A DNA stretch of 64,000 bases from Eledone cirrhosa (lineage: Eukaryota), in the NCBI GenBank assembly GCA_964016885.1, contig OZ024743.1, positions 220,286,001 through 220,350,000 on the forward strand, in the 5' to 3' direction. This document shows positions 8,271 through 62,919 of this stretch, piece by piece. Both the position numbers and the translations under genes were made by a program. Below the pieces are notes generated by a model. It was not told the origin of the DNA. It did no database searches and saw only the letters and a list, made by a program, of their open reading frames with translations. Numbering within the stretch: position 1 is the stretch's first letter; every line of letters begins with the position of its first letter.

Positions 8271-8332
8271 TAAATAGAATATATATTAATAAATATATTA
8301 ATAAATAGAAACTATATTTATAAAACCATATT

Positions 8333-8398
8333 TATTTTATTATGCATATTTCAAGGGCCACCAAGGCAAATTATGGTGCGCTTTGATCAGATAATATA
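8333..8398 (-). ncRNA. pLTR hammerhead (CUGAUCA variant)
   Basis: TATATTAT-CTGATCA-aagcgCACCA..TGGTGgccctt-GAAA-TATGCA-TA-ATAAAATA. Confidence 0.7.
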
Positions 8399-8603
8399 CA
8401 GATTTGTTTTATAAATAAATATTGACATACCCGGGAAAAAAAGACAACCTTGACGGTTGGAGCTTCCTGGATAGTGGAGATATTACATTTATTGAGGGTG
8501 ATAGAAATTATGAGTGAGTATGCAAATGAGTGTCCAAAAGGTTGAAAAGATAACGGTTTATTTAAATTAAACTGTCGGAAGAAGGTGATATGTGAGGGAG
8601 AGA

Positions 8604-8737
8604 GAAAAAAAAAAGAAAAAAAAGAAAAAAAAAGAAAAAAAAGAAAAAAAAAAAGAAAAAAAAGAAAAAAAAAGAAAAAAAAGAAAAAAAAAGAAAAAAA
8701 AAGAAAAAAAAGAAAAAAAAAGAAAAAAAAGAAAGAA
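8604..8737 (+). repeat. (GA8-9)n expansion inside the Penelope 3' region
   Basis: Reiterated GAAAAAAAA; the equivalent site in the inverted arm (~14660-14683) is only ~25 bp. Confidence 0.9.
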
Positions 8738-9881
8738 ATGAGAAAGATAGAAGAGGAAAGAAAGAACGATTATATATATTGGCAGTGAAAATAGCGTGCA
8801 TGAAGAGAAGAGTTTCAAAGGATAAATACAGCGTAAGTATATTTAAGTGAGAGAAGAAATGAGTTTCAAAGGATAAATACAGCGTAAGTATATTTACGTG
8901 AGAGAAGAAATGAAGAAATGAGAATAACGTGGAAGAATAATATTTATAATGCAGGATTCATTATGTTTTGATTATAATATTTATAATGATAGGTTGAAAA
9001 ATTAGATTAAAATTAAAATCAAAAAATTAGAAATCAAAATTAAAGATTAAAATCTACCTTAATATTAAAGATTTAATTTAATAATTTAATAATTAGTTTA
9101 AATGCGTATGTTAAGGATTATAAATTATTTAAATAAATATATATTATTTTACATTACAGCAAATCTAGTATAGTTTATTTTATTAAAAGTTGTAAGTCAA
9201 ACATTTTAAACATCCAAATAATTCTAAATTTATGGAACATTTTAGAGAGTTTACAAAAGAATAACCACTTAGATATATTATAAAAACAGTAAGGAAGCGT
9301 AAAGGAAGTTATAAGTGATTTTTTAAGAACTCAGATGACTCTAAGGATTAAATGCTATAAAGTTAAGAAGGTAAACATTTTTTTATCTTAAGAATATAAT
9401 TAAAACATGAACCATATGTTATTTTATACGAAGTCATAAATTTACTTGCTATAAAGTTAAAACATTTAAAAAAAAATTATCTTAAGAATATATTTAAAGC
9501 ATAAACCATAGGTTACTCCACATATATATTTTTAAAAATCATGTTTTTCCACATATATATAAAAATTTGGATATATATATTAAAAACGTTTGAAAATATA
9601 AGAATATAAAAACATAACAATATAAAAATATTGGAAGGTATAAAAATATGGTTTTTCTATATCTTTCAAAGCAATTTTCAAAAGATTTTCTTAAAACCTT
9701 CCGTAAGTTTTTCAAGAAAAAATTTTCCTTAGAGGAGTTTCAAGCAGTCATATAAAGGAATTTTATAATCTATCAATAGGTGTAATAATATATATGTGAA
9801 GTAGAGATAATAGAAAGTAAATTAAGTATATTAATCATATATAGATATAGAAGACATTATGTAAAAGAGATAAATCGTATA

Positions 9882-12272
9882 TTACATTTTATATATATAT
9901 TTATAAGTTGAATTTAAACGATGTTTGCAGGAACTGAATAAATTATTTCGCAAATTAATAGAGTTCTTACTTTTTAGTATAAAGAATATTTCTTCGACAC
10001 AAAGGAAACAATTTTGGGATAAAGCAGTGTATGAAGGAGCTTTGGAAATAATTTTCCAAAGTAAAGAATAGTTAATGTTCTTGGATTTCAAGTCCCATAA
10101 TAAGTTATATAGAGAAGTTGAAGATTTTTTACCAATATTCGTAAAAGAACATTTATGGTTATTAAAACGAGATTTGAAGTCTGTGGAAGTAGAGCCGACA
10201 TAGTTAAAGGAGTTTCCATTTGTTTTGATATTACAATTGTATACTATATTTTTAACTAAACAATTATTATTTAGAGGACAGTTAGATTTATTTCTACAAT
10301 TACATTTATCTAAATTTATATTATTGGGAGCCGTAACATTATATTGGATATTGCTAGAGGTATTAATGCTATTCTGGTTAGGTTTTAAGTTTCTATTATT
10401 AATTCTATTAATATTCTACGCTAAATTCATAGTGGTGGAATATGAGAGTTTAATAGTATGTCTATTAAATATTGAGTAATACCTGTGTGTTCTAGGAAAG
10501 CACTTATCTAGAGCTTTAAAGAATAATTTAGCAATAGGAGTTTAATGAGAAAGGGGGAGCGAACCATAATATATTTCTAGTTCTACTTTTTCTTTTGGTT
10601 TTCGAGTTAGTGTAAGGTTTTCTATTATTATATTTATAGTTATGGTTAGTTGGCACATCCTTATTATCAATGTATTTAATTTTATTACTATAGCCTGCTC
10701 TACCTAACGCTTCGTTATAATATTGTGCCTTATCTTCAAATATATTTTTATTACCTGAAATTCTAGAAATACGTTGCTGCACAGAATTTACAATAGTGTT
10801 TTTAACGGATCTGGGGCGATTGGAATTAAAGTTAACATAGTTTAAATTCTCATTTATTTTATGAAATGGATAATACAGACCAGTGTTAAGGTTTAAAGTT
10901 ACATCTAAAAAATTTAACTATTTTATAATTATTCTTTACTTCTACTTTAAGATTAACTCAATTAAAAAGTTGTATAATTTCCTTTCTTTTCCTATTTATT
11001 TCACAATTATTATTATTTTCAATAAGTAATAGCATATCGTCACGATATAAACCACCGGTCACCTCCGGTATTTTCCTATGTAAAGTATTGTTAATAAAAA
11101 TCCCCACAAGATCCGTTAATTGCGCCGAGTCCGATGATCCCATAGTGATATCGAAATTGTTATCTCTGTCTGCTCTAGTCCAAAGGTGGTTGCTAAATTT
11201 AATTAATGTTTTACGTGCCTTTAAGATAATGTGCATTTCATTACTAGTTAAATCTGTATATTTAAATGCATATGTAAGGGCTTTATTTTAGTAGATTAGG
11301 AGTGATAGATGAGTAATAATTAGTAATATCCAATTGAATAAATTTATTGTTATGCTTATATTTAATTGTTTCTACTTTAGGCACAAGGCCAGCAAATTAC
11401 CCAGTACATTACTGGTACTTTATTTTATCGACCCCGTAAGGATGAAAGGCAAAGTTAACCTCGGCGGGATTTGAACTCAGACTGTAAAGGGACGTAACTA
11501 TGCTAGAAAGCATGGCGTCCAACCCTCTACCGATACTGCCAATGCTTATATTTAATGTCCTTAAAGCAGTCGATAACTTCATTAGGCCCATTCCATAATT
11601 TTAAATAAGATATTTCCTTAAGTTGTGATATGATTCGATCTAAAATATTCTTGCTAAGTATGGCAAGGTCCGATTTAGATGGTGCAATCAATCTAACTGG
11701 TAATTCAATTTCAAAATTTCTTTTATGGTCCTTCATATTAATTTTTGGTTTCCTAGGTATGAAGGGTTGAGTCCTATTTTCGATGCCTAATTCCTGCATT
11801 ATATAAGAAGCTTCAGTATTTAGTTTTTCAAGGTCATCATTGGTTGCTCTTTTGTAATTCTTCCTTAATTCCTTCAATATACGATCATTGTAATTATCCT
11901 TTTGCATTCCGTAAAGATTGTTGGTTTTATCTGATTTAACCGTTTTTTCAAAGCTTTCTATATTATTTTTGAGACTTTTTAGGTAATCCTGGCCTACAAA
12001 GTGGTTTTTCTTAAATTTAATGCTTTGTATGATAGAGATAATCTCATTTTCAAATTCCATTAATAGTTTGTTGGAAGGTGGATTTTTTTAGATTTGAAGA
12101 TTCTATCAAGATTGGAAATATTTTATTTCGCATCAGATTTATCGAAATGAAAAGCACGCCATCTGAGTCTTCTTATAAATGAGTCCGATTTTCCTATAAG
12201 TTGTTTTAGAAAGTCCTTATTCCTAGGTAAAGGTATGTCTTTTAGAGAAGAAGAGATCGTAAAGAATTCCAT
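9882..12272 (-). pseudogene. Penelope RT + GIY-YIG ORF, frameshifted and SINE-interrupted
   Basis: SLKDIP..FIRRLRWRAF; ITMGSSDSAQLTDLVG; GLYRDDML; RNILWFAPPFS; CNCRNKSNCPLNNNC; IVYNC..YVGST..FKSRFNNH; CFLCVEE..CKHR. Confidence 0.9.
11367..11541 (-). mobile_element. SINE inserted in the Penelope RT, with a 15-bp TSD
   Basis: ATGCTTATATTTAAT at 11352-11366 and 11542-11556. Confidence 0.92.
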
Positions 12273-12457
12273 TTTTAATTAGTTATAATTTAAAGCGCTC
12301 AACAATAAAGGAGCAAAATATATGCAGAGGTTATATTTAATTTGTTTGGATTCAACAAGCTTAAACATTTTTATAACTGATATAAAGCACTTTACAGTTT
12401 AGTGGAGTAAATACACAATATATTAATAAATGGAAACTATATTTATAAAACCATATT

Positions 12458-12523
12458 TATTTTATTATACATATTTCAAGGGCCACCAAGGCAAATTATG
12501 GTGCGCTTTCATCAGATAAAATA
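12458..12523 (-). ncRNA. 5' pLTR hammerhead, intact core
   Basis: TATTTTAT-CTGATGA-stem II-GAAA-TATGTA-TA-ATAAAATA. Confidence 0.85.
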
Positions 12524-12558
12524 CAGATTTGTTTTATAAATAAATATTGACATACCCG

Positions 12559-15062
12559 GTCTTTATTATCCATTTCATAAAATAAATGAGAACTTAAACT
12601 ATGTTAACTTTTATTCCAATCACACCAGATCCGTTAAAAACACTATTGTAAATTCTGTGGAGCAACGTATTTCTAGAATTTCAGCTAATAAAAATATATT
12701 TGAAGATAAGGCACAATATCATAACGAAGCGTTAGGTAGAGCAGGCTATAGTAATAAAATTAAATACATTGATAATAAGGATGTGCCAACTAACCATAAC
12801 TATAAATATAATAATAGAAAACCTTACACTAACTCGAAAACCAAAAGAAAAAGTAGAACTAGAAATATATTATGGTTCGCTCCCCCTTTCTCATTAAGTA
12901 TTAAAACTCCTATTGCTAAATTATTCTTTAAAGCTCTAGATAAGTGCTTTCCTAGAACACACAGGTATTACTCAATATTTAATAGACATACTATTAAACT
13001 CTCATATTCCACCACTATGAATTTAGCGTAGAATATTGATAGAATTAATAATAGAAACTTAAAACCTAACCAGAATAGCATTAATACCCCTAGCAATATC
13101 CAATATAGTGTTACGGCTCCTCTAAATAATAATTGTTTAGTTAAAAATATAGTATACAATTGTAATGTCAAAACAAATGGAAACTCCTTTAACTATGTCG
13201 GCTCTACTTCCACAGACTTCAAATCTCGTTTTAATAACCATAAATGTTCTTTTACGAATATTGGTAAAAAATCTTCAACTTCTCTATATAACTTATTATG
13301 GGACTTGAAATCCAAGAACATTAACTATTCTTTACTTTGGAAAATTATTTCCAAAGCTCCTTCATACACTGCTTTATCCCAAAATTGTTTCCTTTGTGTC
13401 GAAGAAATATTCTTTATACTAAAAAGTAAGAACTCTATTAATTTGCGAAATAATTTATTCAGTTCCTGCAAACATCGTTTAAATTCAACTCTTAAATATA
13501 TATATAAAATGTAATATACGATTTATCTCTTTTATAATGTCTTCTATATCTATATATGATTAATATACTTAATTTACTTTCTATTATCTCTACTTCACAT
13601 ATATATTATTACACCTATCGATAGATTATAAAATTCCTTTATATGACGGCTTGAAACTCCTCTAAGGAAAAGTTTTTCTTGAAAAACTTACGGAAGGTTC
13701 TAAGAAAATCTTTTGAAAATTGCTTTGAAAGATATAGAAAAACCATTATTTTTATACCTTCCAATATTTTTATATTGTTATATTTTTATATTCTTATATT
13801 TTCAAACGTTTTTAATATATATATCCAAATTTTTATATATATGTGGAAAAACATGATTTTTAAAAATATATATGTGGAGTAACCTATGGTTTATGCTTTA
13901 AATATATTCTTAAGATAAATTTTTTTTAAAATGTTTTAACTTTATAGCAAGTAAATTTATGACTTCGTATAAAATAACATATGGTTCATGTTTTAATTAT
14001 ATTCTTAAGATAAAAAAATGTTTACCTTCTTAACTTTATAGCATTTAATCCTTAGAGTCATCTGAGTTCTTAAAAAATCACTTATAACTTCCTTTACGCT
14101 TCCTTACTGTTTTTATAATATATCTAAGTGGTTATTCTTTTATAAACTCTCGAAAATTTTCCATAAATTTAGAATTATTTGGATGTTTAAAATGTTTGAC
14201 TTACAACATTTAATAAAATAAACTATACTAGATTTGCTGTAATGTAAAATAATATATATTTATTTAAATAATTTATAATCCTTAACATACGCATTTAAAC
14301 TAATTATTAAATTATTAAATTAAATCTTTAATATTAAGGTAGATTTTAATCTTTAATTTTGATTTCTAATTTTTTAATTTTAATTTTAATCTAATTTTTC
14401 AACCTATCATTATAAATATTATAATCAAAACATAATGAATCCTGCATTATAAATATTATTCTTCCACGTTATTCTCATTTCTTCATTTCTTCTCTCACGT
14501 AAATATACTTACGCTGTATTTATCCTTTGAAACTCATTTCTTCTCTCACTTAAATATACTTACGCTGTATTTATCCTTTGAAACTCTTCTCTTCATGCAC
14601 GCTATTTTCACTGTCAATATATATAATCGTTCTTTCTTTCCTCTTCTATCTTTCTCATTTATTTCTTTTTTTCCTTTTTTTTTCTCTCTCCCTCACATAT
14701 CACCTTCTTCCAACAGTTTAATTTAAATAAACCGTTATCTTTTCAACCTTTCGGACACTCATTTGCATACTCACTCATAATTTTCTATCACCCTCAATAA
14801 ATTTAATATCTCCACTATCCAGGAAGCTCCAACCGTTAAGGTTGTCTTTTTTTCCCGGGTATGTCAATATTTATTTATAAAACAAATCTGTATTTTATCT
14901 GATGAAAGCGCACCATAATTTGTTTTGTGGCCCTTGAAATATGTATAATGAAATAAATATGGTTTTATAAATATAGTTTCCATTTATTAATATATTGTGT
15001 ATTTACTCCTCTATCTTGTTGAGTGCTTGTTGAATCCCAACAAATTAAATATAACTTCTGCA
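12559..15062 (+). mobile_element. Inverted 3' arm of Penelope element 1
   Basis: Reverse complement of ~10880 to 8288, plus pLTR; ORFs 12657-13031 and 13305-13514 mirror 10528-10782 and 9882-10091. Confidence 0.92.
14891..14955 (+). ncRNA. pLTR hammerhead
   Basis: TATTTTAT-CTGATGA-..-GAAA-TATGTA-TA-ATGAAATA. Confidence 0.8.
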
Positions 15063-17653: not shown

Positions 17654-17723
<70 letters not shown>

Positions 17724-17771
17724 TTTCTGAATTTGTTTAGCAAGATTCTTTATCTGAAAACGTGTGTTGAA

Positions 17772-20067
17772 ACTGATATTGTTATGCTTTGGGACGGTCA
17801 TGTTGCTAATAAGAAACACACGCACCAGTTGCTTTCACTCCAATTTATTATAAATTAAATTTATAAATTTAAGAATTTATAAATTTCCGGTTGGTTGGTT
17901 GGTTCCACAACCGCACGGTCGTTCATATATTGTCAAAGTTCTTTCCTCACACATTCTGTGACCTCTTCAGTGACTACGGATTCTTTTCTTTGTTTTTGTG
18001 CCTCTCCTTTGTTCTGTCCTACGCCATCTTGTTTTTGTGTGTGTTGTGTGCTTAGTTTGCCCATGTGTTACATCCGGGTGTCTGTGTGTGTTTATATTTG
18101 TTTATTTATTTGTTTATTTACATGTTACTGGTTGGTTGTTTGTTCTATGTGTGTGTGTGTTTTCATTTTGTCCTTTATTGTAAGTTGTGATGTTGCTATT
18201 CCATTCATGTTTTCTATTTAATTTCGGTTGGAGTTCATTTATATTTATTGCCTCTGTGATTTGTCTAAACATTGCGTCTTTTCTGTGTATAGATTCTATT
18301 TTTTATTTCTATGTTCTCTAATTTGCCCTTATGTTCTATTTTAGCATGTTGGTGGAGTACAGATGATTCTTTTCTATCTTGAAGCTCTCGCCAGTGTTCA
18401 TTTATCCGTTCTCCTATACAACGAGCTGTCTCACCTATGTGCACTATATTCTTATCTCTACATTGTCCTTCAGTACATCTTATGCTATATACTACATTTC
18501 TAGTTTTACAGTTAATATGGGGGCTTAGTTTGCAGTTTATACATTTCTTATCTATACAGGGAGGTCTTTGAAAAGGGTATGTATTGCTAATAAGTGTTTT
18601 TATGGAGGTACCTGGTCTTTCTACTATCTTAATATTGAGTTTATGTTTATCTAGGGCCCTTCTAAATTTGTAAGCTAATTCACCTCTAGGGGTTGTATTG
18701 ATGAACATTACACTCAGGTATTTATTGCTATCATACCATGAGTTTATTCTATTAACCTTATTCCTAGTTATTTCTATTCTATTCCAAAATTTGCTCCTAT
18801 ACAAAGGGCAGGTCCCATTTGTATCATTATTTACCATTTTTTCCCATTTGGTTCTGGCTCCTCTATATACTCTGATTTTATCTCTCTGATTGTAACCAGA
18901 GAACTGCATACGGTGGATGAAGTGTTGTATGTGTCTCTCTAGTTCATGGGGTTGAACATGCGGGACACGTTTCTCATAACCCGTACCAAATCCGCAATCA
19001 GTATGTTGATTTTGGTATGGTCGAAACAGCTGAGTTTCGGTGGATCAGATATTTGGAAGTCATGGGCTTGGCATAATGGGAATGGAGGATTTGTTTTTTG
19101 TTATTAATGGTTTCTAACCAGAGCTCTGTGTCTAGTACAGGTAATTGATGGTTGGGGTGTTTGCTTGGGTAGTCTATAGTAACTCTAATACTCTGGTGGA
19201 TGGAGTTAGCTATTTGCTGGATGCTTTCCATGGTATTTTTCTCTAATTACTGACTGTTCTCTAGTGGGGTGTTTTTACTACGATGTTTATATCAACGTAG
19301 CGGGAGTACATTATCAGGGTTAAGAAGTTGCTGTCTTCTAATTGTTCTTTAAGTTTAAGTTTAAGTCTATTGTCCCACCATACCATGAATAGGTTAGCTA
19401 TGTCCCCTGCAATGCTAACACCAATGGCTGCTCCCTCCTCTTGGGCATATGTTTTTCCATTAAATTTGCACATATGTTCCTTCGGGGTTAATTTTATACT
19501 GGCCCCACCGCTTGTGCAATCATTTTCTTTAGTTCATCGTGGTTTTCGGGGGTTCGTATGGCTCTGGTCCACCCGTTCCATCTATCTGTGTGGGTTGTCT
19601 TGGCCATTGTAGGTAATGGTAGGTGGTCTGCCTCTTGCTCGTCTTGTAGGGCACAGATTGCTAAGGTCATATGTATCTAGATAATCATTACTATAGTTAA
19701 GTTTAAGTAGGAATCCCAGCTCACTGGTATCAATCCGACGGAATTCAACATTGCTCTCAGTGATCATTTCTACGCATTTCTCCACAGCAAAATCCACGTC
19801 AATGGATGGATATAGGGACACAACATCCATACTACCTATTATACAGTTTGTTAGGTCCCTAGATCAGTTACTTTCGCTGATACTGCTGAGGAGGTCCTCC
19901 GTGCTGTCACATATATCTGGGGACATTTCAATGATGGGGCGTATGATCAGGGAGAGGAAGTAGGAAAGTCTGTAGTTACTAGCAATGTTAGCTCCACAGA
20001 CTGGCCGTGTTGGTAGTCCTGTGACAGGGTCACTGCTCGTTTTATGGTCTTTTCGAAGCCCATACAA
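17772..20067 (-). mobile_element. Penelope-like element 2 (RT + C-terminal GIY-YIG), 5'-truncated and frameshifted
   Basis: MDVVSLYPSID; GAAIGVSIAGDIANLFM; YSRYVD; LPVLDTELW; MQFSGY; CINC..NCKTRNVVYSIRC..HIGETARCIGERINEH. Confidence 0.9.
17932..17974 (-). ncRNA. Hammerhead-like motif at the 3' end of Penelope 2
   Basis: GTCA-CTGAAGA-ggTCACAgaatgTGTGAg-GAAA-GAAC-TT-TGAC. Confidence 0.6.
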
Positions 20068-21425
20068 GAAAACCCACACAGATAGATGGAACGGGTGGAC
20101 CAGAGCCATACGGACCCCCGAAAACCACGATGAACTAAAGAAAATGATTGCACATGCGGTGGGGGCTAGTATAAAATTAACCCTTAAAGAACATATGTTC
20201 AAATTTAATGGAAAAACATATGCCCAAGAGGAGGGAGCAGCCATTGGTGTTAGCATTGCAGGGGACATAGCTAACCTATTCATGGTATGGTGGAACAATA
20301 GACTTAAACTTAAACTTAAAGAACAATTAGAGAGATAAAATCAGAGTATATAGAGGACCCAGAACCAAATGGGAAAAAATGGTAAATAATGAAACAAATG
20401 GGACCTGCCCTTTGTATAGGAACAAATTTTGGAATAGAATAGAAATAATTAGGAATAAGGTTAATAGAATAAACTCATGATATGATAGCAATCAATACAA
20501 CCCCTAGAGGTGAATTAGCTTACAAATTTAGAAGGGCCCTAGATAAACATAAACTCAATATTAGGATAGTAGAAATACCAGGTACCGCCATAAAAACATT
20601 TATTAGCAATACATACCCTTTTCAAAGACCTCCCTGTATAGATAAGAAATGTATAATCTGTAAACTAAGCCCCCATATTAACTGTAAAACTAGAAATGTA
20701 GTATATAGTATATAGTATAAGATGTACTGAAGGACAATGTAGAGATAAGAATATAGTGTACATAGGTGATACAGCTCGTAGTATAGGAGAACGGATAAAT
20801 GAACACTGGTGAGAGCTTCAAGATAGAAAAGAATCACCTGTACTCCACCAACATGTTAAAATAGAACATAAGGGTAAATAAGAGAACATAGAAATAAAAA
20901 TAGAATCTACACACAGAAAAGACGCAATGTTTAGACATATCACAGAGGCAATAAACATAAATGAACTCCAACCGAAATTAAATAGAAAACATGAATGGAA
21001 TAGTAACATCACAACTTACAATTAAGGACAAAATGAAAACACACACACACATAGAACAAACAACCAACCAGTAACATGTAAATAAACAAATAAATAAACA
21101 AATATATACACACACAGACACCCGGATGTAACACATGGGCAAACTAAGCACACAACACACACAAAAACAAGATGGCATAGGACAGAACAAAGGAGAAGCA
21201 CAAATACAAAAACAAAGAAAAGAATCCCCAGTCACTGAAGAGGTCACAGAATGTGTGAGGAAAGAACTTTGACAATATATGAACAACCGTCCGGTTGTGG
21301 AACCAACCAACCGGAAATTTATAAATTCTTAAATTTATAAATTTAATTTATAATAAATTGGAGTGAAAGCAACTGGTGCGTGCGTTTCTTATTGGCAACA
21401 TGACCCTCCCAAAGCATAACAATAT
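20068..21425 (+). mobile_element. Inverted arm of Penelope element 2 with a ~450-bp internal deletion
   Basis: 20068-20330 is the reverse complement of ~19338-19598, then jumps to the reverse complement of 18888-17772. Confidence 0.9.
21231..21273 (+). ncRNA. Hammerhead-like motif in the inverted arm of Penelope 2
   Basis: Same motif as 17932-17974. Confidence 0.6.
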
Positions 21426-31440: not shown

Positions 31441-31672
31441 AAAATTAGAATTGGTGCTCTGAAATAGCGATATATATATGAATGTATATATTGTGTATTT
31501 TAAATTTTCAGCAAACAGGGGAGAAAATTTAAAGTAAGTGACACTGTCACTACTCTAAAACAATAGCGTAAGGTCTTCGAAATGCTTTTAATTAAGCATA
31601 CAGTGTATTGCAAAATACACTGTATATACATTCATATATATATCGCTATTTCACAGCACCAATTCTAATTTT
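31441..31672. repeat. Inverted repeat (~60-bp arms) of the family also seen at 62345-62430
   Basis: AAAATTAGAATTGGTGCTCTGAAATAGCGATAT.. / ..ATATCGCTATTTCACAGCACCAATTCTAATTTT; 31673-31716 resembles the reverse complement of 62347-62395. Confidence 0.75.
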
Positions 31673-31996
31673 CAATTTCTGTCTGACCGGCAACCGCTCT
31701 GTAGAATCAGTTCCTGATTATTAATAGAATTCTATAAGAATTAAACATTCATGATTTTCAGCAAACAAGTGGAGTACTTGGCTTTGATAAGTAACAATCA
31801 TTACGAAACAGAGCTCTGTCAGCTTTATCTCGCCTTGTTTACACAATATATATATATATATATACGTATGTTGATGCCCTAAGGACAGACACTGGTCTGT
31901 TGGAGACGCAGGACATGGCAGCGATAATGAGGGACAGAGACACTGGAGAGAACTCGTCCATGGATCTCGGGAATTTTACCCGCCTTAGATAGATAG

Positions 31997-37290: not shown

Positions 37291-37796
<506 letters not shown>

Positions 37797-37958: not shown

Positions 37959-38350
37959 AGTGAAAGTAGAGGATCTGCCGCAAACTCGGTAGCCGAAACC
38001 GCCGAGCTCGCAATCGATCCCGTCTTTCACTAATATACCCACTCTGTATCTTACCATGTATCGAGTACTTCTTTGATTTGTGGTTTTCTCGGTTCGAAAT
38101 GCCGTAGACTATGAATATATACATACATATATATAGATTCCTCTCTTCACTCACTTCCACGTGTAATTTATTCGATTTTATTTATGAACTTTTATCTATA
38201 TCGATTCGCTATTATTATGCTTATTTGCGTTGGGATGCACACAATTTGAAATTTCATAATTTCCCAATGCTTTCCAAATCAATGTTAAAGAGTTACATAC
38301 AAACACACTTGGCATTTTTTTTATAGCTGATAACCATTTTAAAACAGTTT

Positions 38351-38906
38351 TGTAACATACAAGAGGGGGAAGTTCCAGAGTTTGGCATTAAAAGAGTGTT
38401 AATCACTAAATATTGTAACATACAAGAAGGGGAAGTTCCAGAGTTTGGCATTAAAAGAGTGTTAATCACTAAATATTGTAACATACAAGAGGGGAAGTTC
38501 CAGAGTTTGGCATTAAAAGAGTGTTAATCACTAAATATTGTAACATACAAGAGGGGGAAGTTCCAGAGTTTGGCATTAAAAGAGTGTTAATCACTAAATA
38601 TTGTAACATACAAGAGGGGAAGTTCCAGAGTTTGGCATTAAAAGAGTGTTAATCACTAAATATTGTAACATACAAGAGGGGGAAGTTCCAGAGTTTGGCA
38701 TTAAAAGAGTGTTAATCACTAAATATTGTAACATACAAGAGGGGAAGTTCCAGAGTTTGGCATTAAAAGAGTGTTAATCACTAAATATTGTAACATACAA
38801 GAGAGGGAAGTTCCAGAGTTTGGCATTAAAAAGTGTTAATCACTAAATATTGTAACATACAAGAGGGGAAGTTCCAGAGTTTGGCATTAAAAGAGTGTTA
38901 ATCACT
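38351..38906. repeat. Minisatellite, 9 x 62-63 bp
   Basis: TGTAACATACAAGAGGGG(G)AAGTTCCAGAGTTTGGCATTAAAAGAGTGTTAATCACTAAATAT starting at 38351, 38414, 38477, 38539, 38602, 38664, 38727, 38789, 38851. Confidence 0.95.
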
Positions 38907-40079: not shown

Positions 40080-41540
40080 GGGGCCGTGGAAGAATTTCTG
40101 AATCGTGGTGGGAGGAATTTGGACAATTTAGTTGTAGTGATTAGTTTAGCTCTTTGTACCCTAAAATGGTCAGAAAACTTCGATAGGTGATAAACTTAAC
40201 ATGTGCATAAATTGTAGCGCATGTCCAAATAAATGTGTGTTTTGGTAGTTTGAGGAGAAAATATAATTATTAGAACCCTTAGTTCGACCGCCACTGTGTA
40301 TATATAATTAAAACAAATATGCTCTGTGCTCTTTCCTAAGGGATTAATATATCGAGCTACTTCGCATTTGGTAGGAAACTGGTATTATACCAAATTTATT
40401 CATCTCGATTACAATTGTTGCCAATTTATTCATCTCGATATACATTCATTTATTATGGCTATTGGTGGGCTTTGTTACTCGAAAGTTTTACCTGCGCACA
40501 CACAGGATCACCAGCCTTGTCTGATGATCCTGTAAGTACACAGGTGAAACTTCAGAGTAACAAGACTTAGCCATAATAAATGAATATTTAAATTGTACTT
40601 CGGTATTGAGTTTTTATTCTTACTGTCCGTCAATAATTCACGTACTCTCAGGTCTTGAATAATTGTCTTCACCCCACCGCTTATTAATTTTTCAGACCCC
40701 TTCCTCCCGGTCTTTATTCCACCCACACCCCCATCCGTTTATTAAACTTTCCTAATCTCTCTCCGGCGAAATTTTATTGTAAGTGATTCATATTGATACA
40801 ATAGCTGGAGAATCTAATAATAATGTTTGCATAAAAGAAAAACATTATATATGACAGAAGAAGAATATTACAAGAAATTTCATATTTGCGCACGTACACT
40901 TTACAATTACTGATTTCCCAAGCCCTCGCTCCCCATTATTGCCACCCCTCCTATAATTTGGGACCCGAGTGTACCACCAAACTCTCCTCTCTATGTCTAT
41001 CATACAAAACTCTCTTTTAATCCCCCTCTCTATATCTACTAAAATCAAACTCTACCCCTCTATATATCTACCACGACACCGCCTCTCTTATCCCACTCTC
41101 TAAATCTAAGACTAATACACTCTCTCACTCTCTATAAATATCTAAACTTATCTCTCCCAATCCCCCTCTGTATATCAATCACCCCTAAACTCTCCCCCTC
41201 TCTTTATCAATTAACACCAAACTCTCCCCCTCTTTATATCTACTACACGGAACTCTCTTCAAACCATTCTCTCTATATCTACCATACAACACTCTCTCTC
41301 ATCCTATCTCACTCTACTCACCACTACCAAACTCTCTCCCACTCTATATCTATCAATACCAATCTCTATAAATCCTCTCCCTTTATTCGTTACCACCAAA
41401 CTCTCCGCCTCTTTTTACATCAACCATAGAACATACGCTCCCAATCCCCCTCTCTATATCAATTAAAACCAAACTCTACCCCTCTCTATATCTACTACAC
41501 GGAACTCTCTTCCAACCCCACTCTCTATATCAATTACCAC
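40080..41540 (+). repeat. Composite repeat (related to 7880-8070, 15190-16403 and 47318-47380) containing a MITE and a C/T-rich array
   Basis: Direct similarity between the copies. Confidence 0.7.
40643..40973. mobile_element. TA-flanked MITE
   Basis: Imperfect TIRs TACTCTCAGGTCTTGAATAAT / ATAATTTGGGACCCGAGTGTA. Confidence 0.55.
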
Positions 41541-57470: not shown

Positions 57471-57650
57471 AGAAGTGGTTACACAACAGTTAGTTTACCA
57501 TACCGAGAAACAATTTTTTCACCTTAGCGGATCCTCACCTCGTAATGGACATGGTTATACGTATAACGATGTCCATTACGAGCTGAGGATCCGCTAAGGT
57601 GAAACAATTGTTCTCGGTATGGCGAACTAATTGTTGTGTAACCACTTCTA
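57470..57650. repeat. Imperfect palindrome (~88-bp arms) containing mirrored hammerheads
   Basis: TAGAAGTGGTTACACAACA.. / ..TGTTGTGTAACCACTTCTA; centre TTATACGTATAA. Confidence 0.85.
57579..57616 (+). ncRNA. Minimal type I hammerhead, intact core
   Basis: CGAG-CTGAGGA-tCCgctaaGGt-GAAA-CAATTG-TT-CTCG. Confidence 0.75.
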
Positions 57651-62052: not shown

Positions 62053-62115
<63 letters not shown>

Positions 62116-62116
<1 letters not shown>

Positions 62117-62725
62117 GTGAAGATAGACATAGAATATTCGAAAATATTCTGTATGTTTATAATAAACATTTTGAAGACCTAATCGCTATAGAATAGAATA
62201 CGTCACGTATTACAATTAGATTCTCGATAAAAGCAAGGGAAGTAACCTACGCGTTTCATTCTTATTAGAAATCTTCAGGATTACATATCCAGTGCTTTTA
62301 TCGAGAATGACACAGCTAGAGACTTATAGAATACTTAGCTGTGTACAGGAACTGGTTTGAAAGAGCGGTTGCCGGTCCGGCAGAAATTAGAAATTGGATT
62401 AAATGCTCTGAAATAGCGATATATATGTGAAGATAGACATAGAATATTCGAAAATATTCTGTATGTTTATAATAAACATTTTGAAGACCTAATCGCTATA
62501 GAATAGAATACGTCACGTATTACAATTAGATTCTCGATAAAAGCAAGGGAAGTAACCTACTTTTATCCCTTGCTTTTATCGAGAATCTAATTGTAATACG
62601 TGACGTATTCTATTCTATAGCGATTAGGTCTTCAAAATGTTTATTATAAACATACAGAATATTTTCGAATATTCTATGTCTATCTTCACATATATATCGC
62701 TATTTCAGAACATTTAATCCAATTA
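62116..62725 (-). mobile_element. Hammerhead mini-element: 310-bp-period direct repeat plus an inverted arm, flanked by (ATT)n
   Basis: 62116-62250 matches 62426-62560; 62566-62725 is the reverse complement of 62390-62549. Confidence 0.8.
62242..62284 (-). ncRNA. Minimal type I hammerhead, intact core
   Basis: GTAATC-CTGAAGA-tTTCTaataAGAAt-GAAA-CGCG-TA-GGTTAC. Confidence 0.82.
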
Positions 62726-62919
62726 TTATTATTATTATTATTATTATTAATTGTCGTTTCTCCTCTGTACCTAATCAAAAATAATCCCTTATTATATCTT
62801 TCGTTCTTGTCCCCCGGTCTACATCCCTGCTCTCTGCTATGGGAGCGGAGTTAGCTGCCCTCAGGTGGAGTGGCTGTTCCAGTGCGTCTCCCGATGTTTC
62901 GTTGGATGAGGAAATGTAC

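Follow-up and report, generated by a model that had tools for sequence, protein, structure and literature searches.

Insertions of a 310-nt hammerhead family in Eledone cirrhosa suggest Penelope-type twin priming on one, probably circular, RNA

Metazoan retrozymes without long terminal repeats (non-LTR retrozymes) are non-coding tandem arrays of 170-400 nt units with low G+C content and one type I hammerhead each, which has a short helix III and needs dimers (PMC7229834; 10.64898/2026.07.22.740005). Endonuclease-bearing Penelope-like elements, of which non-autonomous multicopy members are known in Chlamydomonas, are characterised by 5′ truncation, a head-to-head inverted copy, microsatellite targets, a 30-40 nt tail at one end only and two internal starts downstream of the hammerhead (PMC11167929, PMC8557442, PMC3846280). 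Here we analyse a repeat that resembles both, located at the right-hand end of a 64,000-nt stretch of the Eledone cirrhosa genome (contig OZ024743.1, positions 220,286,001 to 220,350,000; hereafter 'the window'). We read this copy as an insertion of a young, non-coding 310-nt hammerhead family, i.e. a non-LTR retrozyme, generated by Penelope-type twin priming on one RNA, probably a monomeric circle, and put the probability of this reading at about 0.68.

The synthesis of tandem complementary DNA (cDNA) on circles by a Penelope enzyme has been proposed before (PMC7229834), and a Penelope origin of retrozymes has been argued, with local DNA amplification of pseudo-LTRs being favoured (10.64898/2026.07.22.740005). 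The main text of PMC7229834 does not contain 'inverted', 'microsatellite', 'rolling' or 'truncat', and the accessible part of an octopus repeat annotation (PMC13282606) makes no mention of ribozymes or retrozymes. Open questions in this literature concern the tandem and inverted copies of Penelope-like elements, the role of the hammerhead and the use of circles as insertion template (PMC8557442, PMC7229834, PMC11167929). The family described below is new, and it addresses these questions. The retrozyme class and the circle model are already published; the end-pairing and the all-unit A-to-G genomic evidence are new to the literature searched, in which, with most subscription papers lying outside it, we found neither a one-arm-per-site rule nor edits across whole insertions. 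For the published metazoan retrozymes, RNA circles and cleavage have been demonstrated; the present family is described from genome sequence.

The window insertion and its family

Unit positions are numbered from the first base past the predicted hammerhead cut. The insertion consists of the following features.

62053..62115, no strand: left part of the (ATT)n target microsatellite (Tandem Repeats Finder (TRF) array 62053-62116 and sequence)
62116..62560, minus strand: arm 1, 1.44 units, from unit position 308 to 132; its 3′ end, 62116, is priming site A
62248..62557, minus strand: a complete 310-nt unit from cut to cut, the predicted monomer RNA
62242..62284, minus strand: type I hammerhead motif (sequence motif); predicted cut between 62248 and 62247
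62419..62428, minus strand: priming site A within the unit, positions 130-139, a hairpin followed by AUAUAUAU (pile-up of arm 3′ ends)
62386..62398, minus strand: priming site B within the unit, positions 160-172 (pile-up of arm 3′ ends)
62561..62565, no strand: 5-nt filler at the head-to-head junction (sequence)
62566..62724, plus strand: the inverted arm 2, covering unit positions 8-166 and ending 3′ at priming site B (62724)
62725..62749, no strand: right part of the (ATT)n target microsatellite (TRF array 62722-62749)

In good agreement with the original prediction of a 310-nt direct repeat flanked by (ATT)n, the copies 62116-62250 and 62426-62560 are both 135 nt long and identical, with a period of 310, and (ATT)n arrays lie on either side. 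The minus-strand hammerhead motif with its GUA triplet and predicted scissile bond was re-found at 62284-62242. The inverted arm of ~160 bp also exists (62392-62550 against 62566-62724: 159 nt, a single mismatch at 62406), but it is not joined at the cut point, as had been supposed, and starts at position 8 after the filler. Similarly, the upstream copy does begin near the cut site, but 3 (or 2) nt to the 5′ side of the scissile bond; it thus retains bases that would be absent from a cleaved RNA. This small ambiguity is due to the fact that C62560, the filler and 62566-62567 together form an 8-nt copy of 62573-62580, so that the first base of the upstream copy may itself be filler; the filler was likely templated during end joining. 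On its way from position 308 to 132, the minus arm crosses one cut site.

The hammerhead motif consists of a 6-bp helix I (GUAAUC/GGUUAC, including one G-U), a 4-bp helix II below a U-U mismatch, a 2-bp helix III with a palindromic GC loop, and the core CUGAAGA...GAAA with the cleavage triplet GUA, which is a natural hammerhead triplet (PMC1636495). These dimensions are those of the canonical and minimal type I animal hammerheads (helix I 6 bp, II 4 bp, III 1-2 bp, small palindromic loop), a form that requires a second copy for cleavage (PMC4209133); here, the palindromic GAAACGCGUA strands are predicted to be able to form a 6-bp duplex. In a departure from canonical type I hammerheads, the basal pair of helix II is replaced by U-U in the commonest variants; in the window subfamily, core position 7 is A. 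An Rfam scan of the window returned 138 matches at E ≤ 1, nearly all of them microsatellite noise and none to a hammerhead family, and the hammerhead call therefore rests on core nucleotides and stems. The core is intact in 500 of 534 hammerheads, helix I remains paired in the main variants, and the predicted fold of the whole 310-nt unit is more stable than that of any of 100 shuffles (z -3.7 as a linear, -4.9 as a circular molecule).

There is no open reading frame (ORF) of 150 aa or more at the window locus. Both here and in the mapped copies the units abut directly with no ORF between them, and the layout of an autonomous Penelope-like element, a reverse transcriptase plus GIY-YIG ORF flanked by pseudo-LTRs, is absent. 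With tandem units in the ~150-450 nt range, no ORF, no LTR and a type I hammerhead motif per unit, the family would by its sequence be classed as a non-LTR retrozyme. It differs from Penelope-like elements in this lack of an ORF and in its homogeneous multimer arms, which reach 26 or more units with tandem periods of 309-312.

The host genome measures 3.0 Gb. Exact patterns spanning the cut site matched 1,782 units of the window subfamily and 14,690 units of a younger GAUUAC subfamily, i.e. more than 16,000 near-identical units spread over more than a thousand insertions. Next to TA repeats, 798 site B ends were counted on the plus strand, which implies ~1,600 of them in all. A DNA search in which 39 of 387 candidates were scored gave 166 matches, and the 150 listed among them have 98-100% identity, mostly within arrays. 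The 121 loci mapped comprise 33 best hits, the first 39 C1 loci with an intact junction, 9 in which the base ahead of position 1 is changed, and two groups of 20 selected by a B end and by an A end, respectively. A later set of 37 further regions was picked mostly for a variant near the junction. Some arms are cut off by fetch boundaries.

The two-armed layout was found in 84 of the 121 fetched loci, with differing inner junctions and on many chromosomes, and the geometry of the window copy is therefore no assembly artefact of the kind the original prediction had allowed for. Palindromes are hard to assemble and no read was seen spanning the window locus; nonetheless, the arms differ at one base, the filler appears templated, the layout is repeated across loci and most hammerhead cores are intact, which leaves an assembly artefact or a simple satellite spread by DNA recombination with next to no probability.

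Fixed 3′ ends and scattered 5′ ends

The 3′ ends of the arms adjoin the microsatellite and fall at one of two sites, A (about 130-139) or B (about 160-172), located ~130 and ~165 nt past the cut site and ~35 nt apart. Both ends could be resolved in 75 of the 84 two-armed insertions (9 unresolved), and all 75 combine one A end with one B end. The later 37 regions comprise 22 A+B, 2 A+A, 2 B+B, 6 unresolved and 5 one-armed insertions, bringing the resolved two-armed insertions with one A and one B to 97 of 101. Arm ends abut (TA)n-type runs in 189 cases out of 199 and other sequence in 8; the remaining 2 abut (ATT)n and both belong to the window copy, the only (ATT)n-inserted locus of the 121. 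This target is the sole unusual trait of the window copy.

The ~35 nt between the sites correspond to a Penelope-type tail. Purified Penelope protein, a predicted dimer, cuts both strands at ATT and extends both, and it starts at two internal RNA sites whose distance equals the tail (PMC11167929). In that in vitro study no difference in start site was seen between the strands, whereas here the two arms almost always differ in site. Given a tail from two internal sites, random 5′ truncation with a head-to-head inverted copy and an AT-rich or microsatellite target, we consider it almost certain that the family is a retrozyme moved by a Penelope enzyme. In L1 twin priming, two DNA ends are primed on one RNA, resulting in an inversion joined by microhomology; the second primer anneals internally at a position that varies, and the arms cover non-overlapping sequence. 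In the present family the two priming sites have constant positions, 35 nt apart, and each arm is a many-fold copy of the same sequence.

As for the partner element, our search did not find the autonomous one: self-BLAST of the window, BLAST and tblastn of the masked loci (816 kb) and a variant-motif search (30 of 74 hits read) returned only this family and a 320-nt sister family, within a genome that was not exhaustively searchable. Separately, BLAST of the masked loci placed Penelope-like ORF fragments, related to the first large Penelope-like insertion of the window, within a few kb of many insertions (L032, L035, L037, L039, L046, L050, L051, L057, L060, L111, L115, L121, L127, L166, L176, L178, L184). 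These fragments probably reflect shared targets, and are also candidates for the partner.

The 5′ ends behave differently from what had been predicted, namely that ribozyme cleavage sets the repeat boundary. We counted 185 of them, excluding the window copy and the 9 loci selected for a changed base. Only 5 are found 5 nt or less from the cut site, with 6.0 expected (p 0.71), and their distribution across the unit in ten bins is uniform (chi-square p 0.20); in the later set, 3 of 64 are near the site. Genome-wide, the sequence continues uninterrupted across the cut site at 1,782 junctions, as against 2 true 5′ ends at it, these two being found among 20 units with a non-A base ahead of position 1, the remainder of which are point changes. 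The boundary enrichment that the prediction expected in other copies is thus absent, and a boundary at the cleavage site was rejected as a family rule on the grounds of uniform 5′ ends and read-through junctions. No difference in length was seen between arms ending at A and arms ending at B (p 0.27), nor any correlation between the two lengths.

A combination of a cleavage-set boundary with fold-back self-priming at the cut point, also part of the original prediction, fits the window copy itself, both inner ends of which lie within 10 nt of the cut site, and it would accommodate the microhomologies and short templated fillers that are common at inner junctions. However, the positions of the two inner ends within a locus show no correlation across the family (4 of 77 within 15 nt, 7.7 expected), which rules out fold-back as a rule, just as the 5′ ends rule out the boundary. 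Moreover, 2-3 nt from upstream of the scissile bond are retained in the window copy, the outer ends both coincide with fixed priming sites, and A-to-G changes on the hammerhead strand in both arms (see below) suggest a sense template, whereas the published self-priming model uses an antisense one (PMC3846280). We therefore regard such an origin as very improbable. The coincidence of the window boundary with the cut site is due to chance: the copy is an unexceptional product, and its arms ended near that site by accident.

A probable single template per insertion and its A-to-G changes

Both arms carry an identical haplotype in 75 of 79 loci, and the other four differ at one site; permutation gives 18%, with a maximum of 29%. 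When the best-hit set is excluded, arms are identical in 55 of 58 loci versus 9% by permutation. The 80 loci of at least 2.5 units hold 34 haplotypes, 32 of these loci, mostly from the best-hit set, being of the window type. Very probably, then, both arms are derived from one RNA.

Variants within the arms speak to the nature of this RNA. Across 76 loci, 41 distinct variants are present in all covered units of the two arms, 3 occupy just one matching unit of both, and 111 differ between the arms, which is the pattern of later mutations. Since the transcript of a mutated array would give position-matched single-unit variants, the presence of only 3 of these against 41 all-unit variants points to a monomer that was read many times. 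No single-unit indel was found at positions 300-8 in 547 junction crossings. Arms are longest in the subfamily with the fewest later mutations (median 4.4 units at 0.37 single-unit mutations per kb, against 1.8 units at 1.5 and 1.4 at 3.3). We think it probable that the template was a monomer circle.

The same all-unit variants and shared haplotypes would be predicted if a linear monomer, cleaved or not, were copied by precise template jumps from its 5′ end to its own 3′ end with no covalent circle. Changes of the junction base recur, and one locus, L258 (G000:C10:14285000-14291500), in which both arms switch haplotype, after ~1 unit and ~10 units, may show a switch between two templates. Run-off and jumping would, however, be expected to leave an excess of 5′ ends at the cut site and single-unit indels at the crossings, neither of which is seen, and circles are the abundant form in other animals (PMC7229834). 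We consider such jumping on a linear monomer quite unlikely. A 340-nt contig (310 plus overlap), one in each of three sequencing runs, was considered as a circle and not used: the same runs hold other genome repeats at low depth, and we read it as a collapsed DNA repeat.

The all-unit changes have a distinct spectrum. Once 12 common subfamily markers and one alignment artefact are set aside, 13 of 29 all-unit substitutions but only 19 of 220 single-unit ones are A>G when read on the hammerhead strand (p 4e-6). Among the all-unit changes the 13 A>G compare with 4 T>C and 1 C>T, while single-unit changes follow a symmetric, C>T-rich spectrum. Selection for G-U wobble as the cause of the excess was discarded, as C>U is not enriched (13:1). 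At unit position 5, 67 of 72 changed units are A>G, and 64 of these fill 8 insertions; all 8 whole-insertion changes there are A>G, and 7 of the 8 insertions carry another all-unit A>G.

The cut-site base is changed in 87 units genome-wide, 76 of which lie in 9 insertions. Six of these insertions, with six haplotypes, carry GUG (5/6, 3/3, 5/5, 4/4, 9/9 and 20/20 units). By contrast, the essential U beside the cut site is changed in 9 units, and no insertion is filled (six versus zero whole insertions, one-sided p 0.016). A GUG triplet should not cleave, as G at position 17 is expected to block the reaction, and the simplest source of such arrays would therefore be a change after cutting and closure. 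The finding of A>G on the hammerhead strand in both arms points to a sense template. Collectively, we consider it likely that ADAR edits the template RNA.

The insertion mechanism that we propose would run as follows. Tandem arrays would be transcribed; hammerheads, as dimers, would excise monomers that a host ligase closes; and ADAR would edit some adenosines of the circle. A Penelope-type endonuclease/reverse transcriptase would then cut both strands of an AT-rich microsatellite, and a reverse transcriptase dimer would prime one DNA end at A and the other at B, ~35 nt downstream. Each cDNA would run a random number of rounds on the RNA, after which the two cDNAs would be joined head to head by microhomology-mediated end joining. 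For a wider proposition the odds appear to us even: that these insertions record twin-primed rolling-circle retrotransposition, in which a reverse transcriptase dimer at two fixed sites copies one ADAR-edited circle up to dozens of times in both directions, so that circle edits, including ribozyme-killing ones made after the cut, are a main source of heritable variation in the family, and the Penelope tail and inverted copy, for long without an explanation, both reflect one asymmetric priming step. If true, this would mean RNA edits entering the germline. The traces left by the family can be counted (a single arm for each start site, a single RNA for each insertion, RNA-type edits recurring in all units), the circle model becomes directly testable in the existing in vitro Penelope system, and a small circular RNA suggests itself as a means of writing tandem arrays.

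Alternatively, the same twin priming could have taken place on long uncleaved linear array transcripts or on extrachromosomal DNA circles, with unit number and homogeneity arising by DNA amplification and the hammerhead being a passenger. Shared haplotypes alone fit this as well as they fit a circle, cleavage is dispensable in vitro (PMC11167929), partially repeated variants and a higher-order array on C14 show that DNA duplication occurs, and the GUG arrays show that uncleavable DNA copies exist. Against it, copying of a linear template has no means of placing a new change in each unit (41 all-unit versus 3 position-matched variants), the all-unit changes are one-strand A>G, unlike the symmetric single-unit spectrum, whole insertions are filled by GUG and never by a changed U, and the longest arms are the youngest. 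On balance, we find this alternative unlikely.

Several observations nevertheless weigh against copying of an edited circle by a Penelope enzyme, or limit how far it can be generalised. The loci are not a random sample, having been selected for their identity, one type of end or a variant; 4 of the 101 resolved insertions break the A+B rule; and the partner search, covering the window, the masked loci and the variant-motif hits read, came back empty. The Penelope enzyme in vitro does not need hammerhead cleavage and prefers unprocessed RNA, as shown with the anole enzyme (PMC11167929), and only 1 of 9 frog retrozyme dimers cleaved (10.64898/2026.07.22.740005). The isolated window motif has a minimum-energy fold that is not a hammerhead (z -1.0), and it carries the U-U at the base of helix II. 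In several long arrays (e.g. L046, L049, L062, L271, L276, L277) a variant is repeated in only some of the units, and the C14 array spans 50 kb; together with the two-haplotype locus L258, where template switching or gene conversion across the junction may have taken place, they indicate an additional contribution of DNA duplication, conversion or multimeric templates. In L071, the GUG change is missing from one unit of six. ADAR does not explain the 8 of 29 all-unit variants that are A>T or T>A, nor GUU, which occupies all units of three insertions with three haplotypes (L248, L249, L250) and is a recurrent A-to-U change at the predicted ligation point. The 5′ neighbours of the edited-type sites (U8 C3 A3 G1) show a trend only, 5′ U being found at 8 of 15 sites versus 36 of 93 adenosines, which is not significant, and 4 of the 15 A>G sites are predicted to be unpaired, the mean predicted pairing being 0.64 at these sites against 0.59 for all adenosines.

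In the C14 array (G000:C14:25199400-25240000, L063-L067) truncated unit multimers alternate with TA spacers over at least 40 kb; it is a retrozyme insertion turned satellite. Single variants recur every 2, 6, 4 or 8 units in L271, L276, L277 and L278-L279, and could mark multimeric circles or later duplications.

Sister family, Penelope-like insertions and other features

The original prediction had pointed to a relative of the repeat at 31441-31716, and the similarity was confirmed (77% over 155 nt, E 1e-26). The relative belongs to the 320-nt sister family:

31441..31845, plus strand: older two-armed copy of the 320-nt sister family, having unit positions about 59-235 in common with the 310-nt family at ~75% identity

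This copy carries a hammerhead motif at 31780-31824 on the plus strand, with a palindromic helix III loop and the U3-A8 core variant known in animal hammerheads (PMC4209133). The sister family, with 1,760 first-look candidates, shares the priming region and ends at matching sites (loci L128-L147).

Two large decayed Penelope-like insertions with head-to-head inverted arms lie at ~8290-15030 and 17722-21425, with hammerhead motifs at 12523-12458, 14891-14955, 17974-17932 and 21231-21273. The 310-nt insertion had been described as a miniature of these two. Their tandem-plus-inverted geometry is indeed alike, but self-BLAST of the window detects no sequence similarity and no link to their pseudo-LTRs. 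Like the 310-nt insertions, the one at ~17722-21425 has one long and one short end, which differ by ~54 nt, but no sequence in common with that family. Pfam analysis of the window's Penelope fragments gave a weak GIY-YIG match in one fragment only (E 0.002, below the cut-off).

Among the mapped loci, L033 and L034, 50 kb apart, contain, ~900 bases inside the array, the same foreign insertion at unit position 251, with ends that presumably recall Helitron-type elements. Other tandem repeats of ~484-499 nt are found at L151 1-1536 and L157 1988-2929, and the latter carries a different hammerhead motif, by which it would represent a further retrozyme-like family.

Elsewhere in the window, a 62-nt minisatellite occupies 38350-38906 (8.9 copies, 97% identity). 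A near-perfect hairpin of ~110 nt at 37542-37650 is possibly the centre of another small inverted insertion. A loose scan returned more hammerhead-like motifs at 57579-57616 and 40516-40564 on the plus strand and at 5973-5919 and 272-215 on the minus strand.
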